DNA of 59,883 bases, filler included, from Jimgerdemannia flammicorona (Eukaryota): assembly GCA_003990765.1 (NCBI GenBank). It is 3 parts of 3 records of this genome, joined end to end, with 100 filler letters (N's around TTAATTAATTAA, not from the genome) between each part and the next. Parts side by side here need not be neighbours in the genome. Positions count along the whole stretch, not along the records: positions 20,011 to 39,897 come from RBNJ01001811.1; 2 more parts are not named here. One strand, given 5' to 3'. A model generated the notes under the pieces. The model was not told where the DNA came from and made no database searches. It saw only the letters and a list, made by a program, of their open reading frames with translations. Within the stretch, counting starts at the first letter, position 1. Each line of letters starts with the position of its first letter. The translations under genes were made by a program, and so were the position numbers. This document shows positions 12,699 through 42,204 of the stretch, piece after piece.

Positions 12699-12734
<36 letters not shown>

Positions 12735-13880: not shown

Positions 13881-13930
13881 TTATATATAGTTACGGTATG
13901 GGCGGTATTCGGTCCTTTGCCTAACACATC

Positions 13931-19910: not shown

Positions 19911-20010
19911 NNNNNNNNNNNNNNNNNNNNNNNNNNNNNNNNNNNNNNNNNNNNTTAATTAATTAANNNNNNNNNNNNNNNNNNNNNNNNNNNNNNNNNN
20001 NNNNNNNNNN
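19911..20010. other. Artificial contig linker
   Basis: 44 N + TTAATTAATTAA (stops in all six frames) + 44 N. Confidence 0.97.
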
Positions 20011-20834: not shown

Positions 20835-22513
20835 TGACTCCTTTCACTCGGACCAAACAGTTGGCTCTGCATCTAAGCCACCAGGATGGTGAGCTTCTCA
20901 AGTTTTGGAGGCCACAAATATAGGCTCCAAGGAGCACCGATAGGTGTACCTCATCCCTTAGATATAGGAGTCCCGCCTGGTCTTTTCGGCATAGCCATAG
21001 CTTCTAGTTTCAGCAAGTTACAAGGATTTCAAGAATTTCAGGGCAAGATGGGCAAAACGACACAGGCAAGATAGGCAACATGGGCAACACGGGTAACACG
21101 GGCAACACAGGCAAGACGGGCAAGATGGGCAAGATGGTAAGATGGGCGACATGGGCAAGATGGGCAAAACTGGCAAAATGACACAGACAAGACGGGCAAG
21201 ACGGGCAAGATGGGCAAGACGGGCAAAACGGGCAAAATGGGCAAGATGGGTAACATGGGCAAGACGGCAAGATGGGTGACATGGGCAAGATGGGTGACAT
21301 GGATAAGATGGGCAAAACGGGCAAAACAACATAGGCAAGACCAGCAAAACAGGCAAGATGGGCAACATGGGCAAGATGGCAAGATGGGCGACATGGGCAA
21401 GATGGGCAAAATGGATAAAATGACAGGGCAAGACTGGCAAAGTGGGCAAGATGGGCAACACGGACAAGACAAGACGGGCAACATGGGTAAGATGGGCAAA
21501 ACAAGCAAAATGACAGGCAAGATGGGCAAGACGGGCAAGATAGGTGAGACGGGCAAGACGGGCAAGACGGGCAAGACAGGCAAGATGGGTAACATGGGCA
21601 AGACAAGTAAGACAGGCAAGACAGCAAGACAGGCGATATGGGCAAGATGGGCAAACCATGCAAAACGATATGGGCAAGACGGGCAAAACAGGCAAAATGG
21701 GCAAGATGGGCAAAATGGGCAAGATGGACAAAACAGGCAAAACAAGCAAGATGGGCATAATGGGCAAGATGGGCATAACAGGCAAAACAGGCAAGATGGG
21801 CAACATGGGCAAAATGGCAAGACGGGCGACATGGGCAAGATGGGCAAAATGGGTAAAATGACATGGGCAAGACCGGCAAAACGGGCAAGATGGACAACAC
21901 AGGCAAGACAAGACAGGTAATATGGGCAAGATGGGCAAAACGGGCAAAACGACAGGTAAGACGGGTAAGACAGGCAAGATGGGCAAGGCAGGTAACATGG
22001 GCATGATGGGCAAGATGGGCAAGATGGCAAGTCAGGCAACATGGGCAAGATGGGCAAAATGGGCAAAATGACACAGGCAAGATGCGGGTAACATGGGCAA
22101 GATGGGCAAGACGGGCAAGACGGTAAGACGGGCGACATGGACAAGATGGGCAAAATGGGAAAAATGACGTGGGCAACTGGGCAACTGGGCAAGATGGGCA
22201 AGATGGGCAAGATGGGGAGGTACTAATAGGGGTAGGCCAGGTGCACTAGATGCCAAGTACTTGAGGTGGTTGGGGCTCACAACCCATACCCACTCTTGGG
22301 TGGGGCAGGCTGGGTAGGAGAATCTAGTTACTCAGGCAGTGAGATCGCAACTCACATCCTAAAGGTGTTTAGATTGTTATTGGTTTGGAAATTGTAGTGT
22401 GAGAGTAGGGTGGGGTGAGATGCAGAATGTGGCTGCTGGTATGGCATGAGGATTTTATATAGTTAATAAATGGGGCTCTGGCCTATAGAGGAAAAAAAAA
22501 AAAAAAAAAAAAA
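20835..22513 (+). mobile_element. Retroposed poly(A) element or retrocopy containing a 9-bp satellite
   Basis: 15-bp direct repeat AAGAACTTAGAGCAG at 20820-20834 and 22514-22528, AATAAA at 22465, A24 at 22492-22515. Confidence 0.85.
21041..22214 (+). repeat. Satellite with unit of about 9 bp (GGGCAAGAT/GGGCAAAAC/AGGCAAGAC)
   Basis: More than 100 tandem units with length variants and a recurring higher-order block GGGCGACATGGGCAAGATGGGCAAAA..AAAATGAC. Confidence 0.95.
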
Positions 22514-23399
22514 AAGAACTTAGAGCAGAATGTTCAGGACTATGGGAGCTTTATCTTCATCACTGCTGAAGGAAATGAGATCTGTCTATTTCATATATAT
22601 CACACAAGATAATGTTATTACCAGTGACATCATCATATTTGGCAACAGTGGGGGCTCTCCAATCTATAATATTCTCTTTTACAAAATAAAGAACAAATGT
22701 GGGATCTTGACCCCCAAGGCAGCCAAAGCTGATCTAGTAGAGGAACTTGCTAAGTAGTTTATCAAGATAACTGCACACCTTAGTGATATTGTTAGAGAAG
22801 TCTGAAGTATCAATAAGAGACCAGTATAAAGATTTGCAATTGCTATAGAAGAATGCAATATCACATACTTTAGATATAGAGAAGAAAGCTACTATATAAA
22901 GAATTATATGACCAAAACAAGATATAAAGCCCAATTAAATAATGCTACTAGAACTAGAGAACAAACTAATACAGTAGTCATTGAGGAGATTGGTGATACT
23001 GATGATGAAGAATACTATGAAGAGTCTGAATTCTACCCTATTACTAAAGATACCAGAACCCAGTCCAAGCCCTATGATAAAAAGAGCAACAGCAAGCCAG
23101 TTAGAAGACCAAAGAAGACCCTAGCTGTTACTATTGTGACAGTACAGCCAAATTTGGAAGAAGGAAATAGGGAATAGATACTTGATTGCACCCAGTCCCA
23201 AAGTAGTATAACTTTATAGTTAGCAGTCCTCAATTTCAACATTGTCTAAATTCTTAGACATTATCCAAATTGAATATCCCGATTTAGTATAGCATTTAGA
23301 CATTGTCCAAATATTTCGACAAAGTCCAAATGACCCATTTATTACTTAGCCACTCTCTCATAGCTAGCAAACTTGTAGTATCTTTGAGTAAATAAACCT

Positions 23400-24020
23400 C
23401 AGATCGAAATAGTTCAAAGCAAGAGATAGCAAAGGAACTAGTAAGCCTGCAGGCAGATATACTTCGAACTCACCCACCCTCCCCTGCAACTCAAAGGACT
23501 CTGAGGAGTCAGAGAAGATCAAGTTTTCAAGATACAGAAATCTGATGTACTTTTAAGAGTAAGCATCCGCTATGTTATAACTTGGTGCCCATTGGCTGGT
23601 GAATCAATCATCACCTCCATTGACAATTTCAAGCAGTATGCTGCTGTAAGGACCCTGACAGCAGCACAGTAAGTAGCCCTCATACCCTTCAGCCTATGAG
23701 GTCCTGCCAGAGCAGCATTCACAGCCACAACCTATGCAGGAAATGATGCCGATGCTATACTGACAGCACAGAAGACCTGGCTCTAAAATACATATTACAC
23801 AGATGAGATCAAGCAAGCCCTGAAGGATCAGCTCAATACAACATACCAAGGAATGAGCAAGGATCTAAACACATTCTATACTAGAATTCGATATCAGATA
23901 ATCCTTGCAGATTATGCTGCTGCTATCCGAGATCAAGTAGCCAAAGCAACCTTCATGAAAGGAGTCTATTCAGAAATAGTCATGGCCATCTGCTCATCAC
24001 CAGAAGAGCTTGATAGATAA
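23400..24020 (+). mobile_element. LTR end, PBS-like TGG and decayed gag
   Basis: ..GTTATAAC TTGGTGCCC at about 23580 precedes SIDNFKQYAA..L*GPARA..YQGMSKDLNTFYTRIR..ATFMKG, which resembles retrotransposon gag. Confidence 0.6.
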
Positions 24021-24509
24021 CTGTCTATTGCTGTATAGGTATATTCTGTCCTAATGGAGGTACCTCTCCTTCAGTAGTATGTATATCCAGGATTGAATTT
24101 ACTGAGATACTCCTTCTTCTCTTTAGCTTAGTCCCTATATAGTTAGGTTTGCTCAGTATCAAAGTAGACAAAATCAGTTGTATATCTGATTTCAGATAGA
24201 CTTAATTCAAAGTCAAGTTCTGGTTTAGTGTTGGTTTCAGGTTTGGGTAGAGCTGTAGCAGAGCCTGCTTTAGGTTCAGAGTTAGGTTGTTGATAAAGGG
24301 TTTCTCTTACTTCTTCCTTAAGAATATGGTAGGCCTTGCTGTTCTGGAATCAGTAGTATAATGCAGTCTTGGTCCTGTTACAGTGAAAGTTAGTAGAGTT
24401 GAGCCACTTGGCTATGGAGGCTTGGGCTTTGTGAGGAACTAAGGCTAGAAAGACTGCTGCTGGTTATCCTAGGTTGCTCAGATTTGTTGAGCTGATAAAA
24501 CTCTTGTTG

Positions 24510-25625
24510 AGAAGAGTAAAGAAGGCTTCTATAAGACCTTCTTCATTTTGACTTGTGGGGTGTAGAGTAAGAAGTTTAGTGAATAGGATTTTGCCTATCT
24601 GCTGATTTAATTGAAGTACTTCTTTCTTTGAATGAAGTTTGTCCCATTTGTTATAGGTATAGAGGTTAAATTGTTCTTGTACATCAGGTTCAATTCTTTC
24701 CAGATTGTCAGATAGTTCAGAATAAATTTCAGTTCAGAGGTTGGGCTTTATACCAACTTGTAGGAATTCTCAGAGAGGTTTGTAGCAGGGTGAGGAAGTA
24801 TCTTGAAGCAGAATTGGATTGTAAATCACTACTACCAAGTTGTTAGAGGGTTACTTATTATGGTAACTATTACATAGTTCTAGAGAGATTTTCTGAAAGT
24901 TCTGGATATTCTGAAAGACTGTTTTCTTAAGGTCAAGATCAATTTCATATGGAGTATATCCTCTATACTTATTGATTTCAAGATTAGATTGATATCTCAA
25001 CCAAAGTCCTTTTCCAGACTAGTTCTGGATATTCAGGATTTTCTGTATTTCAGGAAGTTCAAGAAACTAAGACTAGCTTAGTTGAATTGGCATATCACTA
25101 CAGACAATACCCAATTAGAAAATTTCATGATGGGGTTAGGAGTGAGACCTAACAGAGAGTGGATTTACTTAAGAGTAGTTTGTGGGTTATTAAATAGGTT
25201 TATTCACTATTCATAATATTGCTATACTAGGAGTAGTTGTGTAAAGGGATATTGTGGGGAAGTGTTCAGAAATGTTCTTATATATTCAAGTCTGAGATTC
25301 TGAGGTCTGGAGGAGGGGGTATTTATACTAGTGAGGGGCTATCTGGACTATACTGAATATGGATATAGTACTTAATATCTTGCTGAGTTGGAATGCAGTC
25401 ATATAGTACAAATGTGATCTGACATATTAAGAGATCATCTGGCTGCTGAGTCAGTTTACAGTCATGTCATATAAGACTAATTTAACTATACTATGACTTC
25501 TAAGCTATTTATAGATTTAGATGCTATCTGGTTAGTCTTTGATGACATCACTATTGATAATATTATCTTTAATAAAGTCTGAGAGTTTTTCTGACTTCTG
25601 ACATCATCAGTTTCAAAGGTATTGT
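24510..25625. repeat. Dispersed unclassified repeat, copy 1 (copy 2 at 39998-41095)
   Basis: Colinear, same orientation, with mostly transition differences. Confidence 0.85.
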
Positions 25626-25713
25626 CACCTCTATCTCTTACAAGATTAAGACTATCCTTGGTAGCAGTAGTTGTACAAGAATAACAGGTCTTGGTTCTCT
25701 TTTTTTTTTTGGA

Positions 25714-25850
25714 CTGCTGGTATATTTGTAAGGACTGGTCATCCTTATCTAGAGTGAGGGCTCCCAATGTCATGGCTGGGGGTTCAAATCTCTCAGAAAT
25801 GATATTTTCTATAATCCAAGGCAATTTCTAATAGTAATATCTATCATGTA
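25714..25850 (+). repeat. 137-bp direct repeat (putative TSD), left copy
   Basis: CTGCTGGTATATTT...ATCTATCATGTA matches 36365-36501 at a constant offset of 10651. Confidence 0.92.
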
Positions 25851-28800
25851 AAGGAGGAAGAAGGCCCAGTGGGAGCCAAGGGAGCAAACCCAGAGCCAGT
25901 GTTAAAGCAAACAGAAGACATGTGGAAAGGTATGTATAAGGGGGATGAACAAAGAACATAACCAAAAATGCATTAGCCATTTATTGCCACATAAAAATGC
26001 AGTCCTTATATATAAAATATGACATCCCAAAAGGGAGGACATGCCACAACTCAGGGTGAACTGAATTAGAAACCACATGACTGCCGGAGATAGGTGGAGA
26101 TAAAGAGGGAGCCAATCTCAGTTGTAAGATAAAAATCACAAACAAACACAAACAAAACAAATCCAAATCAAGATTAAAAAACATCTGCAGACTCTGGGGG
26201 GGTGAGCACGAGTAAGGGATGAGGCCAAAACAGAGCAAGCCACAGCAAGCCCAAGCAAAGCGAGGGGCTGAAGGCAGCAGAGGAGAGCGGAGTAAGACCG
26301 AGACCCTGGAGTGAGCACGAGACCCCAGAGGGGGCAAGAATGTTTTTTAATCCTCTCCAGCAGAGCTAGAGATACCAGAAGGTAATGAAAATGCAAAATG
26401 AGAGTGATGAATTAAAGAAGAAACAGAAGGAAGATGCAAATAAGCAATCAGAAGGTGTCAAGAAAGAGATGAAAGTCTATGGCATAAAAGAGAAGAGTGT
26501 AGGACAGAATCAGGGCATTGAGCAACCCAGTGAGCATGATTGAATGGTATGACAAGAATCGGGAGTGGGAAAGAAGAGGGAGTACAGAGAGGGTAAGAGG
26601 GGAGGGAGGGAAGGAAGGGGGGATAAAGAGGAGAGAGTAGGGAAGAGCAAACAACAGACTATTCAACAGAAGTAAGCAGATTGCAAATGATAGAAATAGG
26701 GTAGGCATGATGATGGACTATGAAGTTGCCAAGAACCCAAATAGCAGACACCCAATCAGAATGATGGGAGCAGCATAGTGCAAGATGATGAGCCTCACTA
26801 TGAATGCATTCAAGAAGAGTGTGACAAGGATGATTAGACAAGAAGTCAGGGAACTATTGGGAACAGGGAAAACAGGAATAAACAACAGTTTGGAAAGGAG
26901 AAAGAGAAATGGAAAGATCCAAAAAGGGGATACTAGTTATACTGCACACCCAGGTAATAGAATGGTGGGGAGGGTAGATACCCAGAAACATACTAGGAAT
27001 ATCAATATCAGTAACAGCAAAGACAATAAAGTCATCAATGTATCAGTGAAAGAAGATATCTCCAGCCTGGAATGTAATGGAAAGAGGTGAAGAAATATCA
27101 TATAACATATGCAATTTATGGGCCAGGCCAATGAGGTTGGTAAGGGTGGGAGTACAATTCATTTCCATGGCAATACCAGAAGTCTGGTAAAAGGAGCCAA
27201 GGGCTGACTCAAAATAATTAGAGCTACAGACGAGGAGTGTAAGCTCAACAATAGAAGCAAGTAAAACTGGGGAGTCCAAAGAAAAAACAACAGAACCCAA
27301 GAAGCGAAGGCAATCATCGATCTCATCAAAACGAATAGCAGTATAAAAGGAGAAGAAGTTACCAGAGACCAAATGGGAAAAATGGTGAACAGGCACAATG
27401 GTGGAGCAGAGAAGGGCGAGCTCCTGAGTATCATAAAGAATAGTATACTCAGGCCCAAGATAGTATTGTAAGAGAGCCATCCAGGAGAGGAAGAAGTGGG
27501 ATAACCACTTCGAAATCTCAGTAGTAGGGGAACTGTAAGCAGCTGTAATGGGATGCCAAGCCAAAATTGGCTTGTGGACTTTAGGAAGAGTATAGAAAAC
27601 CAGAAGAGAAATATCCAGGGAGGACAAAGAGTCCTGAAAGAAGTTAAAAATAGGGTTCGTGAATGGAGAGTCTGAAAGCAATCTGGTGCAAGTCAGAGAA
27701 ACCCAAAGAAGAGTGAGAATCTCATCCAATCTAAGAGCACTAGGCTCATAAGCCATGGCTCGAAGGAGGGCAGAAAGGCCATCAAGATAGAGTGATTTAG
27801 GAATAAGTGCAAAACCCTGATTCTTATCAGTAATTGTGAGCAAATGTATGGGCAATTGCTTGACTGATTTAAGTGCAGTATACATGGCATGGTCTGAAAC
27901 CAAGCAAGAGCAAGCACATCCAGGAATGGACAGTGAGCAAGCCATGTTGAGGAATACACAGTATGAAGAGACATTGGGAGTGGGGACTCAATGGCTAGGA
28001 ACAAAATAGTGAGAGGGCATCTCACCATAATCTTGAAAGAAAATAGCAAGGTCAAGAGCACATCAAAAATATGTGAGATGAGCCAGATTGGTGAAAGAGA
28101 ATTGTGAGGGAGTCGCAGGAAAAACAAAGCAAGAATCCAAAGATAAGGCAAAGACTTGAAGGGGAGAAAGGGAGCAGTCAGCCAGAGAAAAAAGAGAGAC
28201 AAAAGAGTTCCAAGAGAAGAATAAACCTGAAAGTTCAGGACAAGCAACTGGGAAAGATGAAGGGGAGACAACATGAGGAACCACTCAGAGCATACCAGAA
28301 GTGACGATGGGATCCGAGAAGGGATAGGGACACTGGGGGAAAACTATGCTGGGGGGAAGTTTAAGAGTGAGAGGCCTTCCCCTTTCCTCTGACTTTTTTT
28401 GAAGACGGCAAGCCCAACAAACAGGAGCACACTCTGTCAGAGTGCCAGACCTTGCGGCCATAGGCTTTTATGCAGCCCTTACATTCAGGGGTATGGGTGG
28501 AGGAGGTGGAGGAAGAACTGGCAGAGGAGACCGAAGGCAAGCGAGCAGCCGAGGGGGCAGCCGAGGGGGCAGCAGCATGAGGAACACCACCATGAGGACA
28601 GACAGACTTGGCCAGGTGTCAGTAAGCATGGTGGAGGTGACCGGAGCAGACAGCACAAGGCCAGGCCCCAACAGAGTGAGAACCAAGTTGGTGGCTATGC
28701 TTGGGGGCAGGGGGAATGGAGGAGGAAGCCTTGGCAGAGGAGGGAGACCAGGAAGAGGCCAATGAAGTCTGGTTGGGCTTAGCAGGGGTCTTGGCAGGGG

Positions 28801-31575
28801 TCTTGGAGGGGGCCTTAGCAGCGGCAGCGGCAAAGGAATGAACCTCAGTATGAGCAGCAGTGCGAGCTTCAGCATGAATGGCCTCAGAGACCAAAACCTC
28901 AGGAGAGGCAGGTAGGGGAGCAGTGGTGGCAGCATGAGCAGCAGCAGCAGTGCAGGACATCTCCTACTCATAAAGGCAAACAACAAAAGAGGTGCCGGCG
29001 AGGAGAAAATGATGCACAGTATTGATGTCGGTGGTGACAGAAGGAATGTCTTGGATAGTAAAGCTACAAAAGAGGGCAGTATCCAAAAGGCAAGAGGAGG
29101 CGAAGGCCACGAAGGCAGCACAGATATGGTGGAAGGAGGTGGAAGCAGTGGTGGTGGAAGCAGCAGCAGCATCAGTGGTGACAAGCTTGGTGGCAGTAGT
29201 GGTGGCACGAACCTCTTCAGAGAGGGCTTGGCAGAGGAGGAAGAAGGCCCAGCGGGAGCCAAGGGAGCAAACCCAGAGCCAGTTTCAAAGCGAATAGAAG
29301 ATATGTAGAAAGGTATGTATAAGGGGGACAAATAAAAAATGTAACCAAAAATGTATCAGCCATTTATTGCAATGTAAAAATGCAGTCCTTATATATAAAA
29401 TATGATGTCCCAAAAGGGAGGATGCACCACAACTCAGGGTGAACCGAATTAGAAACCACATAACTGCCAGAGATAGGTGGAGATAAAGGGGGAGCCAATC
29501 CCAGTTGTAGGATAAAAATCACAAACAAATACAAACAAAACAAATCTAAATCGAGATTAAAAAACATCTGCAGACCCCAGAGGAGTGAGTGTGAGTGAGG
29601 GGTGAGGCCAAAACAGAGTGAGCCACAGCGAGTCTGAGTGAAGTGAGGGGCCAAAGGTAGTGGAGGGGAGTGGAGTAAGGCTGAGATCCTGGAGCGAGCG
29701 CAAGACCCTGGAGGGGGCAAGGATGTTTTTTAATCCTCTCCAGCAGAGCCAGAGGCACCAGAAGATAACAAAAATACAATGGATTAAAGAAGAAACAGAA
29801 GGAAGATGCAAACGAGCAATCAGAGGGCATCGAGAAAGAGATGAAAGTCCATGGCATGAAAGAGAAGAGCGCAGGACAGAATCAGGGTGTTAAGCAACCC
29901 AGTGAGTATGATCAAATGGTACAATAAGAATCAGGGGTGGGAAAGAAGAGGGGGTACAGAGAGAGTAAGGGGGGAGGGAGGGAAGAGAGGGGGGATAAAG
30001 AGGAGAGAGTAGGGAAGAGTGAACAACAGACCATTCAACAGAAGCAAGCAGATTGCAAACAATAGAAAGGGGAGAACCATGCTGGGGGAAAGTTTAAGAG
30101 TAGGAGGCCTTTCCCTTCCCTCTGACTTTTTTTGAAGGTGGCAAGCCCAATGAATGAGAGCACACCCCATCAGAGTGTCAGATCTTATGGCCACAGGCTT
30201 TCGTGCAGCTCTTACATTCAGGAGTATGGGTGGAGGAGGCAGAGAAAGAACCAGCGGAGGAGGCCGAAGGTGAGTGAGCAGCTGAGGGGGCAGTAGCACA
30301 AGGAACACCACCATGAGGACAGACGGACTTGGCCAGATGCCAGTAAGCACAGTGGAGGTGACTGGAGCAGACAGCGCAAGACCAGGCCCTGATAGAGCAA
30401 GAACCAAGTTGGCGGCCATGCTTGGGGGCAGGGGGAATGGAGGAGGAAGTCTTGGCAGGGGAGGGAGACCAGGAAGAGGCCAACAAAGCCTGGTTGGGCT
30501 TAGCGGGGGTCTTGGTGGGGGTCTTGGAGGGGGCCTTGGCAGTGGTGGTGGTGAAGGAATGAACCTCAGTATGAGCAGCAGTACAAGCTTTGGCACAAAT
30601 GGCCTCAGAGACCAAAATCTCAGGGGAGGCAGGCAGGAGAGCAGTGGCAGTGATATGAGCAGTAGCGGCAGTGTGGGACGTCTCCTGCTCATGAAGGCGA
30701 ACAACAAAAGAGGTGCTGGCGAGGAGAAAATGATATACAGTATCGATGTTGGTAGCGATAGAAGGAATGTCTTGGATAGCGAAGCCACAAAAGAGGGCAG
30801 CATCCGAAAGGCGAGAGGAGGCAAAGGCCATGAAGGTGGCACAGGTATGATGGAAGGAGGTGGAAGTGGTGGTGGTGGAAGCAGCAGCAGCATCAGTGGC
30901 AGTGAGCTTGGTGGCAGTAGTAGCAGTACAAACCTCTTCAAAGAGGGCTTAGCAGCAGGCTTTAGGGAGAATAGAGTAGCAGATGGTGGGTGGAGTGACA
31001 ATGTCAATGTTATGGCAGAGACGAGCCTCCTTGGCAGAGAGGGCAAGAACTGACTGGAACTGGGAGAGGAGTGGATGATCAGAGGGACAAAGGTCCAAGG
31101 GAAGAGAAAGGATGGCAGACAAGATATAGGTCTTGAATGAGATAATGGCAGGGGTGAAGGCAGGGGGAGGGGGAGGAGGAAGAGCCTCATCTATGAGCTC
31201 ATTGATAAGGATGGAGACCCCGAGGGCAGATAGTACAGCAGAGGAGGAAGAAGGCCTAGTGGGAGCTAAGGGAGCAAATCCAGAGCCAATGTCAAAGTGA
31301 ATGGAAGATATATGGAAAGGCATATATAAGGGGGACGAACAAAGAATATAACTGAAAATGCATCAGCTGTTTATTGCCATATAAAAACATGATCCTTATA
31401 TATAAAATACAATGTCCCAAAAGAGAGGATGTGCCATAACTTGGGGTGAACCGAATTAGGAACCACATGACTGCTGGAGATAGGCAGAGATAAAGGGGGA
31501 GTCAATCTCAGTTGCAGGATAAAAATCACAAATAAACACCATCAAAACAAATCCAAATCGAGATTAAAAAACATC
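25851..31575 (-). mobile_element. Penelope-like element array, left arm: pLTR-ORF1-(RT deleted)-pLTR-(5'-truncated ORF1)-RT-pLTR
   Basis: Reverse-complement homologue of 31576-36370, with junctions at about 30068 and 29231. Confidence 0.9.
26347..28400 (-). pseudogene. Penelope-like reverse transcriptase, decayed
   Basis: FYTLPKVHKP..WHPITAAYSSPT, SGNFFSFYTAI, YQTSGIAMEMNCTPTLTNL, followed by a thumb region containing SNHP. Confidence 0.88.
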
Positions 31576-32660
31576 CTTGCCCCCTTCGGGGTCTCATGCT
31601 CGCTTTGGGGTCTCAGCCTTACTCCACTTCCCTCCACTGCCTTCGGCCCCTCACTTCACTCAGGCTTGCTGCAGCTCACTCCATTTCAGCCTTACTCTCA
31701 CTCATGCTCACCCCTCTGGGGTCTGCAGATGTTTTTTAATCTCGATTTGGATTTGTTTTGTTTGTGTTTGTTTGTGATTTTTATCCTACAACTGAGATTG
31801 GCTCCCCCTTTATCTCCACCTATCTCCGACGGTCATGTGGTTCCTAATTCAGTTTGCCCCAAGTTGTGGTGCATCCTCCCTTTTGGGACGTCATATTTTA
31901 TATATAAGGACCACATTTTTACATGGCAATAAATGGCTGATGCATTTTCGGTTACATTCTTTATTCGTCCCCCTTATACATGCCTTTCTACATGTCTTCT
32001 ATTCACTTTGACACTGGCTCTGGGTTTGCTTCCTTGGCTTCTGCTGGGCCTTCTTCCTCCTCTTTTTAATCTCGATTTGGATTTGTTTTGTTTGTGTTTG
32101 TTTGTGATTTTTATCCTGCAACTGGGATTGGCTCCCTCTTTATCTCCACCTATCTCCAGCAGTCATGTGGTTTCTAATTCAGTTCTGGCACATCCTCCCT
32201 TTTGGGACATTGTATTTTGTATATAAGGACTGTATTTTTATGTGGCAATAAATGGCTGATGCATTTTTGGTTATGTTCTTTGTTCGTCACCCTTATATAT
32301 GCCTTTCCATATGTCTTCCATTCGCTTTGACACTGGCTCTGAGTTTGCTCCCTTGGCTCCTGCTGGGCCTTCTTCCTCCTCTTCTCCAGGTCTGTAGATG
32401 TTTTTTAATCTCAATTTGGATTTTTTTTGTTTGTGTTTGTTTGTGATTTTTATCCTGCAACTGGGATTAGCTCCCCCTTTATCTCCACCTATCTCTAGCA
32501 GTCATGTGGTTCCTAATTCGGTTCGCCCCAAGTTGTGGTACATCCTCCCTTTTGGGATGTTATATTTTATATATAAGGACTGTGTTTTTACATGGCAATA
32601 AACAGCTGATGCATTTTCAGTTACATTCTTTGTTTGTCCCCCTTATATACACCTTTTCAC

Positions 32661-33854
32661 ATGTCTTCTGTTTGCTTTGATACTGGCTCTGGGTTTGCTC
32701 CCTTGGCTCCCACTGGGCCTTCTTTCTCATCTGCTGTACTGCTTGCCCTCAGGGCCTCCATCCTCATTGACGAGCTCATGGATGAGGCTCTTCCTCCTCT
32801 CCCTCCCCCTGCCTTCACCCCCACCACTGTCTCATTCGAGACCTATATCTTGTCCACCATCCTTTCCCTCCCCTTGGACCTTCATCCCTCTGGTCATCCA
32901 CTCCTCTCTCAGTTCTGGTCAGTTCTTGCTCTCTCTGCCAAGGAGGCTTGTCTCCGCCATGATGTCAATGTCATCGCTCTGCCCATCATCTGCTACTCTG
33001 TTCTCCCTGAAGCCCACCGCCAAGCCCTCTCTGAAGAGGTTCATGCTGCCACTGCTGCTGCCAAGCTCACCGCCACTGATGCTGCTGCCGCTTCTACCAC
33101 CACCGCTTCCATCTCCTTCTACCATGCCTGTGCAACCTTTGTGGCCTTCATCTCCTCTCACCTTTCGGATGCTGCCCCCTTTTGTGGCTTTGCTATCCAA
33201 GATGTTCCTTCTGTCGCCACTGACATCGATGCTATGTATCATTTTCTCCTCACTAGCATCTCTTTTGTTGTTTGCCTTCATGAGCAGGAGACATCCCATG
33301 CTGCCGCTGCTGCTCATGCTGCTGCCACTGCTCTCCTGCCTGCCTCCCCCGAGGTTTTGGTCTCTGAGGCCATTCATGCCAAAGCTCGCACTGCTGCTCA
33401 TGCTGAGGTTCATTCCTTCACCACCACTACTGCCAAGACCCCTGCCAAGCCCAACCAGGCTTTGTTGGCCTCTTCCCAGTCTCTCTCCTCTGCCAAGGCT
33501 TCCTCCTCCATTCCCCCTGCCCCCAAGCATGGCTGCCAACTTGGTTCTCACCCTGTCAGGGCCTGGCCTTGCACTGTCTGCTCTGGTCACCTCCACCATG
33601 CTTACTGGTACCTGGCCAAGTCTGTCTGTCCTCATGGTGGTGTTCCTCATGCTGCTGCCCCCTCGGCTGCTCGCTCACCTTCAGTCTCCTCTACCAGTTC
33701 TTCCTCTGCCTCCTCCACCCATGCCCCTAAATGTAAGGGCTACATGAAAGCCTATGGTCACAAGGTCTGGCACTCTAACAGGGTGTGCTCCCATTTGTTA
33801 GGCTCACCACCTTCAAAAAAAGTCAGAGGGAAGGAGAAGGTCTCCTGCTCTTAA
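32661..33854 (+). CDS. PLE ORF1 (Ala/Ser/Pro-rich, CxxC..H motif)
   Basis: Open frame MSSV.FDTGSGFAPLAP..ILIDELMDEAL..WPCTVCSGHLH, conserved in the left-arm copies. TATATAA lies about 90 bp upstream inside the pLTR. Confidence 0.6.
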   Translation: MSSVCFDTGSGFAPLAPTGPSFSSAVLLALRASILIDELMDEALPPLPPPAFTPTTVSFETYILSTILSLPLDLHPSGHPLLSQFWSVLALSAKEACLRHDVNVIALPIICYSVLPEAHRQALSEEVHAATAAAKLTATDAAAASTTTASISFYHACATFVAFISSHLSDAAPFCGFAIQDVPSVATDIDAMYHFLLTSISFVVCLHEQETSHAAAAAHAAATALLPASPEVLVSEAIHAKARTAAHAEVHSFTTTTAKTPAKPNQALLASSQSLSSAKASSSIPPAPKHGCQLGSHPVRAWPCTVCSGHLHHAYWYLAKSVCPHGGVPHAAAPSAARSPSVSSTSSSSASSTHAPKCKGYMKAYGHKVWHSNRVCSHLLGSPPSKKVRGKEKVSCS

Positions 33855-35869
33855 ACTTCCCCTTAGCATGGTTCTCCCCCAGTGTCCTCATCCCTTCTTG
33901 GATCCTGTCATCACTTCTGGTGTACCCTGAGTGGTTCCTCATGTTGTCCCCCCTTTGCCTTTTCCAGTTGCTTGTCCCAAACTTTCAGGTTTATTCTTCT
34001 CTTGGAACTCTTTTGTCTCCTCCTTTTTCTCCAGCTGACTGCCCCCTTTCTCCCCTTCAAGTCTTTGCCTTATCTTTGGGTCCTTGCTTCGTTTTTCCTA
34101 CAACTCTCTCACAATTCTCTTTCACCAATCCAGCTCATCTCATATGTTTTCGATGTGCTCTTGATCTTGCTATTTTCTTTCAAGATTGTAGTGAGATGCC
34201 CTCTCACTATTTTGTTCCTAGTGATTGGGTCCCCCCTCCCAATGTCTCTTCATACTGCATATTCCTTGATATGGCTTGCTCGCTGTCTGTTCCCAGACAT
34301 ACTCACTCTTGCTTGGTTTCAGACCATACTATGTGTACCGCACTTAAATCGGTCAAGCAATTGCCCATGCATTTGCTCACAGTCACTAATAAGAATCAGG
34401 GTTTTGCACTTATTCCTAAATTGCTCTACCTTGATGGCCTTTCTGCCCTCCTTCGAGCCACAGCTTACAAGCCTAGTGCTCTTGGATTGGATGAGATTCT
34501 CACTCTTCTTTGGATTTCTCTGGCTTGTGCCAGATCACTTTCAGACTCTCTGTTCGCGAAACCCATTTTTAACTTCTTCCAGGACTCTTTGTCCTCCCTG
34601 GATATTTCTCTTCCGGTTTTCTATGCTCTTCCTAAAGTCCATAAGCCTATTTTGGCTTGGCATCCCATTACAGCTGCTTACAGTTCCCCTACCACTGAGA
34701 TTTCGAAGTGGTTATCCCGCTTCTTCCTCTCCTAGATGGCTCTCTTACAACACCATCTTGGGCCTGAGTATACTATTCTTCATGATACTCAGGAGCTTGC
34801 CCTTCTCTGCTCTACTATTGTGCCTGTTCACCATTTTTCCCATTTGGCCTCTGGTGACTTCTCCTCCTTTTATACTACTATTCATTTTGATGAGATCAAT
34901 GATTGCCTTTACTTCTTGGGTTCTGTTGTTTTTCCTTCGAACTCTCTGGTTTTGCTTGCTTCCATTGTTGAGCTTATGCTCCTCATCTGTGGCTCTAATT
35001 ATTTTGAGTCAACTCTTGGCTCCTTTTACCAGACTTCTTGTATTGCCATGGGAATGAATTGTGCCCCCACCCTTGCCAACCTCATTGGCCTGGCCTATGA
35101 ATTGTGTGCATTATATGATATTTCTTCACCTCTTTCTATTGTATTCCAGGCTGGAGATATCTTCTTTTGCTGATACATTGATGACTTTATTGTCTTTACT
35201 GTTGCTGGTATTAATATCCCTAGTATGTTCCTGGGCATCTACCCTCCATACCATTCTATTACCTGGGTGTATGGTACAACTAGTATCCCCTTTTTGGACC
35301 TTTTCATTTCTCTTTCTCCTTTCCAAACTGTTGTTTATTCTCATTTTCCCCATTCCCAATAGTTCCCTGACTTCTTGTCCAATCATCCTTATCGCACTCT
35401 TCTTGAATACATTCGTAGTGAGGCTCATCATCTTGCACTATGCTGCTCCCATCATTCTGATTGAGTGTCTGCTGTTTGGGTTCTTGGCAACTTCATGGTC
35501 CATCATTATACCTACTCTATTTCTATCATTCGTGATCTGCTTGCTTCTGTTGAATGGTCTGTTGTTCACTCTTCCCTACTCTCTCCTCTTTATTCCCCCT
35601 CCCTTCTCTCCCTCCCTCCTTATCCTCTTCATACCCCCTCTTCTTTCCCACCCCCAATTCTTATTGTACCATTTGATCATGTTTGCTGGATTGCTCAACA
35701 CCCTGATTCTGTCCTGCACTCTTCTCTTTTATGCCATGGACTTTCATCTCTTTCTCAACACCCTCTGATTGCTCGTTTGTATCTTCCTTCTATTTCTTCT
35801 TTAATCCATCGCTCTTGTTTTGCATTTTTGTCACCTTCTAGTGCCTCTGGCTCTGCTGGAGAGGATTAA
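33815..35869 (+). pseudogene. PLE ORF2 reverse transcriptase without GIY-YIG domain
   Basis: FYALPKVHKP, SGDFSSFYT, IAMGMNCAPTLANL, FC*YIDD (probably CGA>TGA), IPFLDL and SNHP. It has a few internal stops and ends at TAA 35869, followed directly by the pLTR. Confidence 0.9.
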
Positions 35870-36364
35870 AAAACATCCTTGCCCCCTCTGGGGTCTCGTG
35901 CTTGCTCTGGGGTCTCAGCCTTACTCTGCTCTCCTCTGCTGCCTTTGGCCCCTCACTTTGCTTGAACTCACTGTAGCTCACTCTGTTTTGGCCTCACCCC
36001 TCACTCGTACTCACCCCTCTGAGGTCTGCAGATATTTTTTAATCTCAATTTGGATTTGTTTTGTTTGTGTTTGTTTGTAATTTTTATCCTGCAACTGGTA
36101 TTAGCTCCCCCTTTATCTCCACCTATCTTTGGCAGTTATATGGTTCCTAATTCGGTTCACCTTGAGTTGTGGTGCATCCTCCCTTTTGGGATGTCATATT
36201 TTGTATATAAGGACCATGTTTTTACATGGCAATAAATGGCTGATGTATTTTTAGTTATATTCTTTGTTTGTCTCCCTTATACATGCCTTTCCACATGTCT
36301 TCTGTTCGCTTTGACACTGGCTCTGAGTTTGCTCCCTTGGCTCTTGCTGGGCCTTCTTCCTCCT

Positions 36365-36501
36365 CTGCTGGTATATTTATAAGGACTGGCCATCCTTATC
36401 TAGAGTGAGGGCTCCCAATGTTATGGCTGGGGGTTCAAATCTCTCAGAAATGATATTTTCTATAATCCAAGGCAATTTCTAATAGTAATATCTATCATAT
36501 A
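36365..36501 (+). repeat. 137-bp direct repeat (putative TSD), right copy
   Basis: Matches 25714-25850 with a few transitions. Confidence 0.92.
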
Positions 36502-36508
36502 GATGGCT

Positions 36509-36511
<3 letters not shown>

Positions 36512-36546
<35 letters not shown>

Positions 36547-37741
36547 ATTTTTTTTTTTTTGTTTTTTTTTTTTTTAATGGACTCATGTCTCACGGATTTT
36601 TATTGGAAGGGAACCTAGACTATATAGGCCAAAACCCTCCCCCACCACCCACCAAGCACTGCTCCCCCATTAACCTAGGCTAGCTATTATCTAGCAGCTC
36701 GACCATGCCAGACACAGTAGGGCCAATAGGCCCATATCTCATTCTGCATACCATGCTCTCCCTATTACCGGGAGAAATCCAACCATATATCAATGACCAA
36801 AAGTGCATGCCCAAGAACCCAACATATATACAAGGCCACACCCAAGCTGAATAGAATAGCCCCTGTCACCCCAAAGAGAATGACAGGCAAAGAAAAAACC
36901 CTCATCAAAGCACAACATAGTGGGTAGGGCCAGGTTCTCCCAGTCGAGATAAGTAAAGGACTTACATGTAAGGTGGGAGAAAACCCCCAATACTCCACTA
37001 CTCAAGCCTGTGGGCCTCGATTATGTTGCCATATCAGCTCTCAGTTCTAGTTGAGTATAGCCAAGATGCCTGAAATGGGTAGCCTCAGGCCTCCCGACCC
37101 CCTCTAACAACTGGGGCCCAACCCTGCTGACTGTCAAAAGAAGCCAATAGTGATACCTACCACCTAACTGCACTGCACCAATCAAAAGGCCCCACCAAAG
37201 CAGCACCTGCCCCAGCCCCAATGACTGCCCCCAGCCTGGCACTCTACTGATTCACTGTTATCACTCTTCCTCCTATCTGTGATGGCTATCTCCTCTCCCA
37301 TCCCAACAACATCCGAAAAACAGTCACCTATACCAGAACTGTACTCGCCAGGAAGCTTGCCAAAGCCAGAGGGCCCCACCATAAACACTAAGGACCTGCA
37401 GGTAACCTACACTAAGCACTTGATGCCCAAGGTCAGCTGACTCCCTATGTAGCCCGAGATATACCGAGACAACTCCTTGTTGGTAATGGCAAAAGGAAGA
37501 AGGTGCCGCACCAAAATGGGTATATCTCAGACACAGCCAAAGGTACCAGAATCCATAAAAAAGTGGAGGAAGCACTGATCTGACACCAATAAAGGAACAA
37601 CTCATCACCATTGCCCTCCTCTCACTATGTCTCTGCAGATACAGCAAACCAACCCAAGGTAAAGGGGGTAATAATAGGAGAAAGGGGACTTGAAAGGTTG
37701 CCTACTAAACCTTGTGACCAGTAAGATAGTGGAGAAAGGAG
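36512..37741 (-). mobile_element. 1.2-kb non-autonomous poly(A) retroelement (SINE-like), copy 1
   Basis: Poly(T) at about 36512-36575. Decayed 16-bp TSD: CATATAGATGGCTTGA (36496-36511) versus TGTGTAGATAGCTTGA (37743-37758). Confidence 0.85.
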
Positions 37742-37759
37742 CTGTGTAGATAGCTTGAG

Positions 37760-38220
37760 ATTAGTTTCAATAATATCAGCTTTCTTGAGTTCAGATGAAG
37801 TATCTATTACTCTTCAATAGAGGTGATACAAATAGATCAAACAGAGTTATTTAAATACATTTTACTTCTGCTAAGTAATGAGGTCTTGTATAGTTACAGT
37901 ATATCTTAGTCTTAAATTAATAAGTATAGTTCATGAATTTTTGATAGATGAGATAGAGTTCTTCTTATCTCAGTTTAAGTTTGGTACTTTTAGGTTTCTT
38001 TTATAATAGTACAGTACACCAAACTAGTTATAGAGATTTAGAGTTAGTCTTATAGTTATAGTACTTCTTCTGGTATTCTTGTATCTTGGCAGTAGGTTCT
38101 TATACTTGTTGATGTATTTTATATAACCAGATGATCTCTTTAGTAACTTGTTTTATAGTCTTGCATGTAGTTTCCAAATTAGTTCTGAGGATGATATGCA
38201 ATTTTGGTGGCTTGGAGGTT
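37760..38220 (-). mobile_element. Decayed Gypsy integrase C-terminus (GPY/F module)
   Basis: The minus strand reads KSTKLKLR*EELYLIYQKFMNYTY, a decayed KLxPRWxGPYxI. Confidence 0.55.
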
Positions 38221-38226
38221 GGTACT

Positions 38227-38650
38227 TAGTGCTCCCAACAAATCAAATCAAATCAAATTTGGCCTAAACTCGATTCGATTCAATCGAATCAAGGGTCTAA
38301 TTCGATTCAATTCAAATCGAATCAAAGGTCCAATTTGATTCAAAGTTCAATTCAAACCTTAATTTTCAAAATATAATAACTCAACAAAAACTCATCTAAA
38401 TTTAACATATTTTAGCTTGTTAGATTTACTGTATTAATGTGATTCTAATAAGCTAAAGTACATTAGATTTAGATGAGTTTATGCTGAGTTATTGCATTTT
38501 GAAAATTAGTATTCAAATCAGACCCTCAATTTGATTCGACTTTTGATTCAATTCAAATTGATTTGAATTGAAAAATCCCCAATTTTATTTGACTTGTTTA
38601 ACCCTCAATTCAATTTAATTCGAATTGATTTGACTCATTTGGGAGCACTA
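38227..38650. mobile_element. Fold-back MITE (hAT-like TIR)
   Basis: Perfect 12-bp TIR TAGTGCTCCCAA/TTGGGAGCACTA, subterminal (ATTCG/AATCG)n arrays and an internal inverted repeat of about 60 bp (38363-38422 / 38446-38504). Confidence 0.85.
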
Positions 38651-38724
38651 TGTGTGCTTATAAAGAAGTACTGGATAAAAGTTTTATAGAATAATAGAGT
38701 AGTAGAGAAGCTAAAGATATAATA

Positions 38725-39897
38725 CTCCTTTCTCTGCTATCTTACTGGTTACAAGATTTGGTAGGTGACCTTCTGAGTCCCCTTTCCCCTATTATTACCC
38801 CCTCTATCTTGGGTTGGTTTACTATGCCTGTAGGGGTATGGTGGGAGGAGGGCAATGGTGATGAGTTGCTCCTTTATCAGTATCAGATCAGTGCTTCCTT
38901 CACTTTTTTGCAGATTCTGGTATCTTCAGCTGTATCTGGGGTGTACTCATTTTGGTGTGGCACCTTCTTCCTTTTGCTGTTGCCAACAAGGAGTTGTCTT
39001 GGAGTATCTCAGACTATGTAGGGAGTCGGCCGACCTTGGGTATCAAGTGCTCAGTATAGGTTACCTGTAGGTCCTCAGTACCTATGGTGGGGCTCTCTGA
39101 CTTTGGTGAGCTTCTTGGCAAGCACAGTTCTGACATAGGTGACTGTTTTTCAGATGTTGTTGGGATGGGAGAGGAGATGGCCATCATAGATAGGAGGAAG
39201 GATGATAATGGTGAACCAGTAGGGTGCCAGACTGGGGGCAGTTATCAGAGCTGAGGCAGGTGCTACTTTGGTGGGGTCTTTTGATTGGTGTGGTATGGTT
39301 AGATAGTAGGTATCACTCTCGGCTTCTTTTGGTGGTCAGTGGGGTTGGGCCCCAGTCATCAGATGGGTTGGGGGGCCCAAGGCTACCCATTTCAGGTGTC
39401 TTGGCTGCACTCAACTGGAACTGAGAGCTGACATAGTAATGTGATTGAGGCCTATAGGCTTGAGTAGTGGAGTATTGGAGATTTTCTCCCACCTCATGTG
39501 TAAGTTCTTTACTCACCTCGACTGGGAGAACCAGGCCCTACCCACTGTGTTGTGCTTTGATGAGAGTTTTTCTTTGTCTATTATTCTCTTTGGAGTGATA
39601 GGAGCTATTCTATTCAGCTTGAGCATGGCCTTGTACATATGTTGGGTTATCAGGCATGCACTTTCGATCATTGGCATATGGTTGGGTTTCCCTTGATGGT
39701 AGGGAGAGCGTGGTATACAGAATGAGGTGTGGGCCAACATAGGCCCTGCTATGCCTGGCATGGTCAAGCTGCTAGATAATAGCTAGCCTAGGTTAATAGG
39801 GGGGCAATGCTTGGTGGGTGGTGGGGGAGGGTTTTGGCCTATATAGTCTAGGTTTTCTTCTAATAAAAATCCATGGGACATAAGTCTGTTAAAAAAA
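38725..39897 (+). mobile_element. 1.2-kb SINE-like element, copy 2
   Basis: Reverse complement of copy 1 with the same 5' start CTCCTTTCTC. The A-tail runs into the gap. Confidence 0.85.
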
Positions 39898-39997
39898 NNN
39901 NNNNNNNNNNNNNNNNNNNNNNNNNNNNNNNNNNNNNNNNNTTAATTAATTAANNNNNNNNNNNNNNNNNNNNNNNNNNNNNNNNNNNNNNNNNNNN
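39898..39997. other. Artificial contig linker
   Basis: 44 N + TTAATTAATTAA + 44 N. Confidence 0.97.
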
Positions 39998-41095
39998 AAA
40001 AGAGAAGAATAAAGAAGACTTCTATAAGACCTTCTTAATCTTAACTTGCAGGGTGTAGAGTAAGAAGTTTGGTAGAATTTTACCTATTTACTGGTTTAAT
40101 TAGAGTACTTCTTTTTTTGTCCCACTTATTGCAGGTATAGAGGTTAAATTGTCCTTATACATCAGGTTCAATTCTCTCCAGATTGTCAGATGGTTCAGAA
40201 TAAATTCCAGTTCAGAGGTTGGGCTTTATACCAACTTATAGGAATCCTCAGAGGGTTTTGTAGTAGAGTGAGGAAGTATCTTGAAGTAGAATTGGATTGT
40301 AAACTATTACTATCAAGTTATAAGAGGGTTACTTATTAGGATAACTGTTATATAGTTCTGAAAGAGTTTTCTGGAAGTTCTGAATATTCTGGAAGACTGT
40401 TTTCTTAAGGTTAAGATCAATTTCATATGGAGTATATCCTCTATGCTTATTAATTTCAAAATTGGATTGATGTCTCAACCAAAGTCCTTTTTCAGACTAG
40501 TTTTGGATGTTCAGGATTTTCCATATTTCAAGAAGTTCAAGAAACTAAGATCAGCTTAGTTGAATCAGTATATCACTGCAGACAATACCCAATTAGGAGA
40601 TTTTGTGACAGGGTTAGGAGTAAGACCTAATAGAGAGTAGATTTACTTAAGAGTGGTTTATGGGTTATTAAATAGGTTTATTTGCTATTTTTTGATATTA
40701 CTATACTAGAAGTAGTTTATATGAAGAGATTTTATGAGAAAGTGCTCAGAAGTTGTATTTGGATTATTTAAGTCTGAGATTCTGAGGTCTGAAAAAGGAG
40801 ATATTTATACTAGTGAGGGGTTATCTGGGCTATACTAAATATGAATATAGTACTTAGTACTTTGCTGAGTCAGAATACAGTCATATAGTACAAGTGTGAT
40901 CTGATATGTCAAGAGATCATCTGACTATTGAGTCAGTTGACAGTTATTTTTTTTTTTTGTTTCATGTCAGTTGACAGTTATGTCATATGTACAAGGCTAA
41001 TTTAACTATACTATAACTACTAAGCTGTCTATAGGTTTAGATGCTATCTGAGTAGTCTTCAATGACATCACCATTGATAACATCATCTTTGATGA
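39998..41095. repeat. Dispersed unclassified repeat, copy 2
   Basis: Aligns to 24510-25625. Confidence 0.85.
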
Positions 41096-42204
41096 AGTAG
41101 TCATCTATAAAGAGTACTTCTCAGATTACTTCTCCTTGTTTACTTATGTAGTAATATATTGGAACCTTGTTACCATCCCATAGGATAGCATTATCTATCT
41201 CATATACTAGATATGGAGTTGCTGGGTGAAGGAGGGATATATCATCTTTACTTTCATCAGATTCACTATCTGCATATCTTTTATAAGTTATAGCACTATG
41301 AGTTGCTAGATTATAGTAAGCTGGTAGCTATAGTTCATATTGCTTATACTCAGATGACAGAGTTGTTGGTTTGCTCTCAAGGATTATCTGGAGGTACAGA
41401 TTGTATTCCCTAGTCTCTTCATTATAGTTGAAATAATCAGGAGTGAATACAGATTAGTACTCATGCTAGTGGTCATTATTCTAATAAGTCTCATAGGTAG
41501 TTATGAACTATTATAAGTTTATTGGCAAGATTGGCAGAGTGATCAGGGTTGGTAGAGATCCTTGGCTAGAGGTTATGTTGGTATCAGAGGGATTGTTATC
41601 TTCTGCTTTATCTTAGTCAAACTGAATTATATCATAGACATTCTTCATAGTATATCCAACTTGAGGCATTTGCAGAATATAGTCATCAGGGTGCAGGAAG
41701 GTTCTGTCCATACTCAATATACTTGTGGTTGAGTTCTTGTATCATATTGTCAATTTGTCCATAGGACAGAGTAGCAACCATTTTGATGGTAGTAACTCAG
41801 AGGCAGGGAATAATAGTACTATACTCATAAAAGAGTTCTCAATATTTGCAAGTAATGAGTTTCTACATTGAGACATCTGGGTAATGTCTGTATCATGATA
41901 GTGCTTGACCATGTCTTCTAGGAGACAGCCAATCTGGTAGTAGCTTGAGATTTGTCCAATTCAGTGAGCCTCACTAAGTATGTTCAGGGCATTCTATTGA
42001 GCTCCCACAAAGTAAAGGGGTACTAAGCTATGGATATTCATGAGAGGCAGAGGGGGTGTGGCTCAGTTGACAATATCATTCCAAATATCAGCACAGATAT
42101 AGTTGTAGATCTCAGCAGTCATATTTGTATATATATTTAGAAGTTGGAATTGTTTGTTTAGTTTGTTATAGTTCTTTATTTTGATGCATCTCAGTGCTCA
42201 GTAT

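Follow-up and report, generated by a model that had tools for sequence, protein, structure and literature searches.

An inverted 5'-truncated copy beside an upstream pseudo-long terminal repeat (pseudo-LTR, pLTR), with a target site duplication (TSD) around the unit, is the typical structure of the endonuclease-bearing Penelope elements of animals (PMC3846280, PMC8557442). Here, we describe a related arrangement in a 59,883-nt stretch of DNA assembled for Jimgerdemannia flammicorona (GCA_003990765.1), which as a whole is called the window below. It comprises a head-to-head array of copies of one Penelope-like element (PLE), enclosed by a 137-bp direct repeat. We consider it moderately probable that the array stems from one complex retrotransposition event of an endonuclease-less PLE at an interstitial site within the repeat-rich DNA of an Endogonales-like fungus.

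Among the closest described systems are canonical insertions of the Penelope/Poseidon group, e.g., Pen2a_Av of Adineta vaga (PMC3846280; scheme in Figure 2 of PMC8557442). These share with our locus the pLTR tandem, the inverted 5'-truncated copy, the outward-placed 3' ends and the TSD. At the inverted junction, they likewise have a palindrome or overlap by about 15 bp (in Pen2a_Av, 15 bp between the inverted and the direct pLTR); 5' truncation is frequent, and junctions display microhomology. On the other hand, they encode a C-terminal GIY-YIG nuclease, live in animal hosts, carry hammerheads in their pLTRs and frequently possess a tail of 30-40 bp; the TSDs reported from A. vaga measure 8-10 bp. 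The array investigated here is without nuclease, resides in a fungus, shows no detected hammerhead or tail, is flanked by a duplication of 131-139 bp and includes three extra 3'-terminal pieces. The duplication exceeds the TSDs of A. vaga (PMC3846280) by an order of magnitude.

A second point of comparison is provided by the purified Poseidon protein of Anolis carolinensis (PAc). In vitro, it cuts both DNA strands and extends them, with reverse transcription starting at an internal position of the RNA (PMC11167929). Both features recur in our reading of the array, i.e., both strands prime and the start of the reverse transcriptase (RT) is fixed inside the RNA, which here must reach at least 6 nt past the start. 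In contrast, PAc cuts with its own GIY-YIG domain and its start site has no homology to the cleaved DNA, whereas the array shows a 6-nt homology on its right side and encodes no nuclease. The main text of PMC11167929 does not trace the inverted structure found in genomes back to this two-strand reaction. An earlier note on this DNA did not know the full configuration to have been described. This novelty has to be given up, given the published typical Penelope structure (PMC3846280, PMC8557442) and the two-strand extension in vitro (PMC11167929).

With regard to the encoded protein, the Coprina elements of fungi and other hosts and the Athena elements of rotifers (PMC8557442, PMC13159263) offer a third comparison. 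They combine DKN, RT and thumb, lack a nuclease and have direct terminal repeats, and Coprina shares the fungal host. They are described as confined to chromosome ends, where they are flanked by telomeric repeats and use telomeric overhangs as primers. Our array, by contrast, is interstitial as far as its 19.9-kb piece shows, has host DNA on both sides and follows the animal-type organisation. The tandem/inverted organisation is described as not shared by endonuclease-deficient PLEs of fungi and protists (PMC3846280), and the cleavage properties of the nuclease have been suggested to shape such structures (PMC8557442). Measured against these papers, it is unusual that the PLE belongs to an endonuclease-less lineage, that it is found in a fungus and at an interstitial site, and that its duplication amounts to 131-139 bp.

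Twin priming of human L1, reportedly set out by Ostertag and Kazazian in 2001, is a further relative in terms of geometry. There, the second target 3'-OH is said to prime cDNA synthesis as well, annealing inside the same RNA such that the inverted part is an upstream segment. The two complementary DNAs (cDNAs) made in this way are reportedly joined by microhomology, which places the inverted structure within one TSD. Here, both arms begin at the same 3' terminus and hold several template copies, i.e., a second, internal priming position does not appear. Among publications on twin priming together with Penelope, titles and abstracts contained nothing on PLE structure.

Anatomy of the array and its junctions

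The window is joined from three pieces (1-19910, 20011-39897 and 39998-59883) by artificial linkers of the form N44-TTAATTAATTAA-N44 at 19911-20010 and 39898-39997, and adjacency across these linkers is not real sequence. The array and both 137-mers lie wholly within the middle, 19,887-bp piece; the data comprise one locus with decayed copies. The copies are named L1 to L3 (minus strand) as well as c1 to c3 and R (plus strand). Equivalents refer to R, whose plus-strand body serves as the reference (Table 1).

Table 1. Positions within the window of the array, its parts and further features mentioned in the text.
Feature	Position	Strand	Description
Left 137-bp copy (presumed TSD)	25714..25850		runs on from unrelated left flank
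L1	25851..29232	-	5'-truncated by 283 nt; equivalent to 33019-36364 of the full copy
L2	29231..31235	-	body with internal deletion of 1.64 kb (equivalent of 33880-35519 gone): 31235->30069 joined to 30068->29231; 3' part 849 nt
L3	31575->31236	-	340-nt pLTR upstream of L2, running unbroken into the L2 body
Central head-to-head junction	31562..31575		14 nt, GATTAAAAAACATC, common to both arms
c1	31562-32063	+	3'-terminal 503 nt; equivalent to 35864-36366; starts at 5' half of pLTR stem
c2	32063-32385	+	3'-terminal ~334 nt; equivalent to 36036-36369; starts in 3' half of stem
c3	32388-32736	+	349-nt pLTR directly upstream of the R body; equivalent to 36022-36370
R	32736-36364	+	full 3.63-kb unit; 3' terminus 36364 meets right repeat via CTGCTG
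RT reading frame of R	33779..35869	+	4 in-frame stops; RT motifs and thumb; GIY-YIG domain absent
pLTR stem-loop	35864..36044	+	14-nt inverted pair 35864-35877 / 36031-36044, further pairs, loop of ~120 nt
Right 137-bp copy	36365..36501		runs on into right flank
Repeat pair compared	24509-25578 vs 40002-41098
Repeat pair compared	36569-37741 vs 38725-39897		inverted
Repeat pair compared	42205-43501 vs 50022-51318
Retroposon B	36512-37748	-	poly(A) retroposon; poly(T) 36512-36575, body to 37741
Duplication of retroposon B	36502-36511 and 37749-37758		10-12 nt, GATGGCTTGA/GATAGCTTGA
Retroposon B'	38725-39897		second copy of B; inverted, 85% identical; ends in poly(A) at piece end
TPR + SET genes	6182-8494 and 13925-16114		intron-less paralogues, 73% identical
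Repetitive region	21041-22216		self-matches of 71-78% at many offsets; several open minus-strand frames
Further retroelement	54054-58618		RVT_1 in open reading frame 57404-58615

The two 137-nt copies agree at 133/137 positions, and all 4 differences are transitions. Depending on the assignment of the borders, the repeat is up to 139 nt long (counting the transition 25851/36502 and the match 25852/36503) or 131 nt long (assigning CTGCTG to the element). The 10,514 bp in between (25851-36364) consist solely of copies of one element, and the repeat adjoins both element termini precisely. The left arm encodes its RT motifs on the minus strand (open reading frame (ORF) 27043-27987), the right arm on the plus strand. 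The minus arm (25851-31575) is made up of a pLTR (L3), a deleted body (L2) and a 5'-truncated copy (L1); the plus arm (31562-36364) holds c1, c2 and c3, followed by the full body R. In total, the array includes seven 3'-terminal copies, i.e., pLTRs, two of which run unbroken into a body (at 32736 and 31236).

Read in sense orientation, the left arm ends in ...GGGCCTTCTTCCTCCT(T) followed by the target, and the right arm in ...GGGCCTTCTTCCTCCT followed by CTGCTG and the target. The two arms thus terminate outwardly at one and the same position of the element, to within 0-6 nt of ...CTTCCTCCT; in L1, this terminus is found at 25852, adjoining the left repeat. The description given in the earlier note is hereby confirmed for its main traits, namely a 10.5-kb head-to-head array inside a 137-bp direct repeat, a left arm on the minus and a right arm on the plus strand, the same 3' terminus at both outer ends, a CTGCTG microhomology on the right that belongs to element and target alike, and arms of unequal content that are no simple fold-back copy of each other.

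The junctions follow a common scheme. At 32736 and 31236, where a pLTR passes into a body, the element reads on as ...CCTC(C/A)TCTGCTGTACT, and the left repeat copy begins with CTGCTG beside unrelated flank. Because both show the CTGCTG, it is common to element and target, i.e., a true 6-nt microhomology on the right. The 3' end of L2 joins the start of L1 via CTGC(C), reading ...CCTCCTCTGCC up to the joint and AAGCCC from there on. The CTGC acceptor is the same as at the right target junction. Microhomologies of 4-6 nt are thus present at two junctions besides the centre, and the left target junction shows a homology of 0-2 nt.

These junctions bear on the question whether the right 137-mer is a 3'-transduced flank, carried along from a source copy in the same host repeat family and integrated based on homology, with no staggered break involved. 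The flanks are indeed members of repeat families (86% identity to a second copy for A, 85% between B and B'), and the element RNA must pass beyond ...CCUCCU, since CUGCUG serves as annealing site. Nevertheless, at two internal unit junctions the element continues CTGCTGTACT... and not into the 137-mer. Furthermore, the left arm ends without a 137-mer, no other copy of it is present in the window, and a minus-strand arm could not bear the repeat in direct orientation. We thus regard a transduced flank as decidedly unlikely. A BLAST search with the repeats and the array (E<=1e-5) reveals no further copy of the 137-mer or of the element elsewhere in the window. A transfer RNA gene within the repeat, suggested by GGTTCAAATC, was dismissed, as ARAGORN finds none.

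For comparison with other DNA, the soil metagenome run X1 is the sole run listed that shares words with the region (share 0.10); no RNA run is listed. X1 contigs were aligned to the region at 85% likeness. Two of the resulting joints, 25708->36364 (+2 letters, side 28) and 25850->37779 (+30 letters, side 21), have sides of <30 letters and are repeat-prone. They were rejected as an empty site, since each represents a flank that is continuous with one end of the 137-mer, as in the filled site. The second joint marks 36512-37748 as a separate insertion, in agreement with the window sequence itself. Among the listed X1 contigs, none covers the whole 137-mer plus both flanks, and a 29-nt stretch of the repeat gave 0 loci in the scan of metagenome contigs. 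X1 contigs are far denser on the flanks (21000-25935 and 36425-39500) than on the PLE, with differences that are nearly all transitions. This would be expected if the flanks belonged to repeat families that are larger and present in a related organism.

At the centre of the array, the homology of each arm to the element ends exactly at the edges of the 14-mer GATTAAAAAACATC, and no extra sequence is present. Within the element's pLTR, the 14-mer and its reverse complement are 153 nt apart. Allowing for <=1 mismatch, it occurs 9 times in the window compared to 0.02 expected occurrences, with 9/9 inside the array. Inverted 14-mer pairs are observed in all four copies long enough for both halves; c3 has just the 3' half, and the 14-mer at the junction doubles as the 3' half of L3. 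Equivalents of the stem are present in L1, L2 and c1. RNAalifold predicts the two stem halves to be paired in 4/4 copies, together with ~12 further pairs.

The 5' ends of the shorter copies coincide with this stem. That is, those of c2, c3 and L3 map to its 3' half (equivalents 36036, 36022 and 36031, respectively), and that of c1 maps to its 5' half. The stem-loop may cause the RT to pause, or it may be situated close to the transcript's 5' end. Two cDNAs terminating on opposite halves of the stem, one on the 3' and one on the 5' half, would carry 3' tips with 14 nt of complementarity, as is seen at the joint.

The same inverted pair could also have served fold-back self-priming, in which a single cDNA snaps back on the 14-nt stem and copies itself, with the arms becoming unequal by later deletion. 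The joint sits exactly at the intramolecular inverted pair, 153 nt apart, and self-priming has been favoured for the palindromic junctions of Penelope elements from Adineta vaga (PMC3846280). However, fold-back predicts a mirror arm of the order pLTR-c2-c3-body, followed by the inverted right flank, whereas we find another order, an extra truncated copy and a direct repeat. Several precise later rearrangements would be needed to get from one to the other, and we consider this course highly improbable. The differing arms, the exact 14-nt stem overlap and the copies' equidistance (see below) support two separately primed cDNAs over fold-back.

The element and its missing nuclease domain

The element is a PLE as judged by its DKN motif, RT motifs 1-7, thumb, pLTRs and kinship with a protein that combines RT and GIY-YIG. 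The combination of DKN, RT and thumb has been described as a typical PLE feature (PMC13159263). Within R, we find the motifs TNKNQG, LPKVHKP, SGDF, MGMNCAP, YIDD and FLD...SNHP. The RT of L1, which contains several stop codons, reads TDKNQG (DKN) at the first of these. The RT frame of R ends (35869) where the longest pLTR piece begins. Purines are very scarce in the sense strand of R, with A and G at 16% each compared to 31% for C and 37% for T; this scarcity in the coding strand is not attributable to transitions, and the intact relative P0015 looks less biased.

Pfam recognizes RVT_1 in the RT frame weakly (E=6e-4), and a word-index protein search with the window RT returns 1 weak match. The exhaustive protein search yields 1323 proteins at E<=1e-3 and 95 at E<=1e-10. 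The closest relative is P0015 (45% identity, E=5e-97). Across 20 relatives, DKNLG is nearly invariant, and LPKVHK, YIDD and the SxHP thumb region are shared as well. P0017 links the family to P0170, a protein with RVT_1 and GIY-YIG, to which the window RT itself matches with E=3e-10 over 349 columns. The structural model of P0017 (pLDDT 85.6) has telomerase as its first Foldseek match, narrowly above group II, retron and LINE RTs, and thus supports the PLE assignment weakly; a sequence profile search of the PDB matches prokaryotic RTs, not telomerase. For one relative, the Atlas clusters closest to it come from rotifers and basidiomycetes, which is to be read as a lead only. For relatives of P0015 in metagenome contigs, 54 pattern matches were obtained, none of which was confirmed.

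The endonuclease-bearing PLE clades (Penelope/Poseidon, Neptune, Nematis and Naiad/Chlamys) have a GIY-YIG domain at the C or N terminus. No such domain is detected at E<=1 in 6 reading frames (3 of R and 3 of L1). The same holds for relatives from the list of the exhaustive search, where 0/94 scanned proteins carry it; these scans covered 25 relatives at E<=1e-3, 10 at E<=1 (6 already among the 25 and 4 new) and 59 at E<=1e-4. In a further set of seven proteins, which overlaps with this list, the six that were scanned (P0060, P0017, P0019, P0144, P0169 and P0171) lack GIY-YIG, which is found only in the more distant P0170. The claim of the earlier note that the element is endonuclease-less therefore stands for its own reading frames and its nearest relatives. 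The motif (TTAGGG)3 with <=2 mismatches, the sole telomere motif tried, does not occur in the window.

Mutation spectrum and age of the copies

The copies are 84-92% identical to each other, and L1 differs from R by 390 transitions but only 8 transversions. When private changes are polarised on three copies, we count 116 C>T and 110 G>A (226 in total) vs. 48 T>C and 50 A>G (98 in total). Of the latter, 69/98 are located at CpG, where two copies probably mutated in parallel. For the seven pLTR copies, the respective numbers are 30 (C>T/G>A) vs. 4 (reverse). The C-to-T rate depends on the inferred ancestral context and decreases from CpG (0.41) via CpA (0.14) and CpC (0.08) to CpT (0.008).

Similar statistics are observed outside the element. 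Three unrelated repeat pairs (Table 1) show transition:transversion counts of 132:15, 172:6 and 113:5 with CpG observed/expected ratios of 0.06-0.22. For contrast, the TPR-SET paralogues show 232:158 and a CpG ratio of 1.1, and values of 1.0-1.15 are found in genes and in 1-6000. The divergence is thus the product of a repeat-directed C-to-T process on both DNA strands, similar to repeat-induced point mutation (RIP) or driven by methylation, and not of ordinary drift. Editing of RNA or cDNA was rejected as its cause, since C>T and G>A are balanced on the sense strand and unrelated repeats share the spectrum. Our literature search, which covered the papers in part, found none on such C-to-T repeat hypermutation in Endogonales-like fungi.

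This context dependence governs how the age of the 137-bp repeat is to be read. The 137-mer has 38% G+C and no CpG, for which reason we rejected its higher identity as proof of a younger age. At the context rates of the element, 7.8 changes are expected, compared to 4 observed (P=0.11). With the context taken into account, the age of the repeat is therefore compatible with that of the array. Within the array, the pairwise identity of the 7 pLTR copies ranges from 0.85 to 0.92 and no pair stands out. When three copies are compared, each pair has 12-21 derived states in common, and each copy has 28-44 private changes. This star-like pattern fits a near-simultaneous origin of copies and repeat from near-identical templates.

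The private mutations also speak to a possible assembly artefact, i.e., an inverted arrangement or a second 137-mer that was produced by the assembler. Tandem/inverted PLE structures are known to trouble assemblies (PMC8557442, PMC3846280), and the window itself is built of linker-joined pieces. Still, 12% of sites are different between the arms and 4 sites between the repeats, and each copy carries mutations of its own, which is not expected from collapsed or mis-joined identical repeats. Since the junction microhomologies are orderly as well, we judge an artefact to be very unlikely.

Course of the insertion and its meaning

Beyond the anatomy, the junction sequences, the missing nuclease domain, the mutation spectrum and the compatible ages, we infer the RNA templates, the order of the template jumps, the origin in a single event and the source of the nicks, with the insertion possibly running as follows. 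A target with two breaks on opposite strands, ~131-139 bp apart, would provide two overlapping 3' ends. Each 3'-OH would prime reverse transcription near the same point of the RNA, just 3' of ...CUUCCUCCU, the right one with CAGCAG-3' paired to CUGCUG and the left one with a homology of 0-2 nt. The left cDNA would copy one RNA up to its 5' truncation and then switch, via the CTGC microhomology, to a second RNA at its 3' region. Copying of the latter would skip an internal part of the body and proceed into the upstream pLTR. The right cDNA would copy a full unit and the upstream pLTR, followed by two more jumps to 3' regions. The tips of the two cDNAs, one at the 3' half of the stem and the other at its 5' half, could then anneal over 14 nt and template each other, which would yield the joint. 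Fill-in of the two overhangs would leave the 137-bp duplication, and each copy would later have been C-to-T hypermutated independently.

The earlier note had proposed that both 3'-OH ends of a break staggered by 137 nt primed reverse transcription. Of this, the geometry is as predicted and the arms are not mirror images; healing of a double-strand break by the RT is suggested rather than seen.

Several points weigh against a single retrotransposition event. The locus is a single one, and its 137-bp repeat is taken for a TSD from its position only. A nuclease-less element gives no reason for nicks 137 bp apart, and the 137-bp duplex between them would not separate unaided. Seven 3' termini within one event need at least four template jumps. 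No hammerhead was found in the pLTRs, as Rfam yields nothing for the window at gathering score and no hammerhead family up to E=10 in 25600-36600; it may have been destroyed by hypermutation, and Naiads are likewise without one (PMC8557442). By raw identity, the repeat (97%) seems far younger than the copies (88%; naive per-site P=0.0002), and the reconciliation via context rates draws on just 2-3 copies. Finally, the duplication of the poly(A) retroposon B starts 0-2 nt past the right 137-mer. With the retroposon adjoining the right repeat, the same spot was therefore opened at least twice, for which the nuclease of that retroposon, a fragile site or chance may be responsible.

The last two points also favour an origin in several events. 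Here, the arms would have been inserted separately, the second one at the 5' end of the first, or two loci would have been joined, with the repeat resulting from one of the steps or from unrelated repair. The surroundings are a nested pile of repeats, comprising the A repeat, the retroposons B and B' and the poly(A) insertion beside the right repeat. PLEs often target their own pLTRs, and PAc has been reported to nick its own pLTR region (PMC11167929). Yet a later insertion should bring its own junctions and its own duplication, whereas the 3' end of the left arm adjoins the left repeat exactly. The arms meet at the 14-nt overlap without extra sequence, the copies are equidistant with shared mutations that are not nested, and the repeat is not younger after the context correction. 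Taken together, we find several events unlikely and continue to lean towards a single, complex retrotransposition.

A further-reaching reading would be that a nuclease-less PLE lineage of early-diverging fungi spreads within chromosomes, and not at telomeres alone, by priming both 3' ends of long-staggered breaks that are made otherwise, with the pLTR stem rendering the cDNA tips complementary and thereby sealing the break. The architecture would then follow from RT and RNA and not from GIY-YIG, in contrast to the role suggested for the nuclease in PMC8557442. We put this forward tentatively, as a possibility that is open to considerable doubt. Candidate break makers are, e.g., the nuclease of the neighbouring poly(A) retroposon or intermediates of replication and repair.

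Some features around the array are listed for completeness (Table 1). The A repeat has its second copy within the window, and neither the flanks nor the retroposon copy B' have a Pfam match. The internally repetitive region near the start of the middle piece is without Pfam match, too. Of the TPR-SET genes, one in the first piece shares 63% identity with a protein of Jimgerdemannia flammicorona, its nearest named relative, and 40% with one of Endogone; provided that the pieces stem from one genome, this makes the host an Endogonales-like fungus. The retroelement in the third piece has its RVT_1 match (E=8e-29) preceded by an ORF of 728 amino acids without Pfam match, and its plus strand is strongly G-rich (GC skew 0.44-0.46).

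The origin of tandem/inverted PLE copies has been related to the nuclease (PMC8557442) and to self-priming (PMC3846280), and the extension of two strands has been shown in vitro (PMC11167929). At the locus presented here, unequal arms that meet at the two halves of one RNA stem favour two annealing cDNAs, and this in a nuclease-less element. Being just one locus, and a decayed one, it offers a good lead but not proof. If other insertions of the family are alike, the architecture would be independent of GIY-YIG and endonuclease-less PLEs would not be confined to telomeres. In that case, the RT of a retroelement would be able to seal long-staggered chromosomal breaks in fungi.

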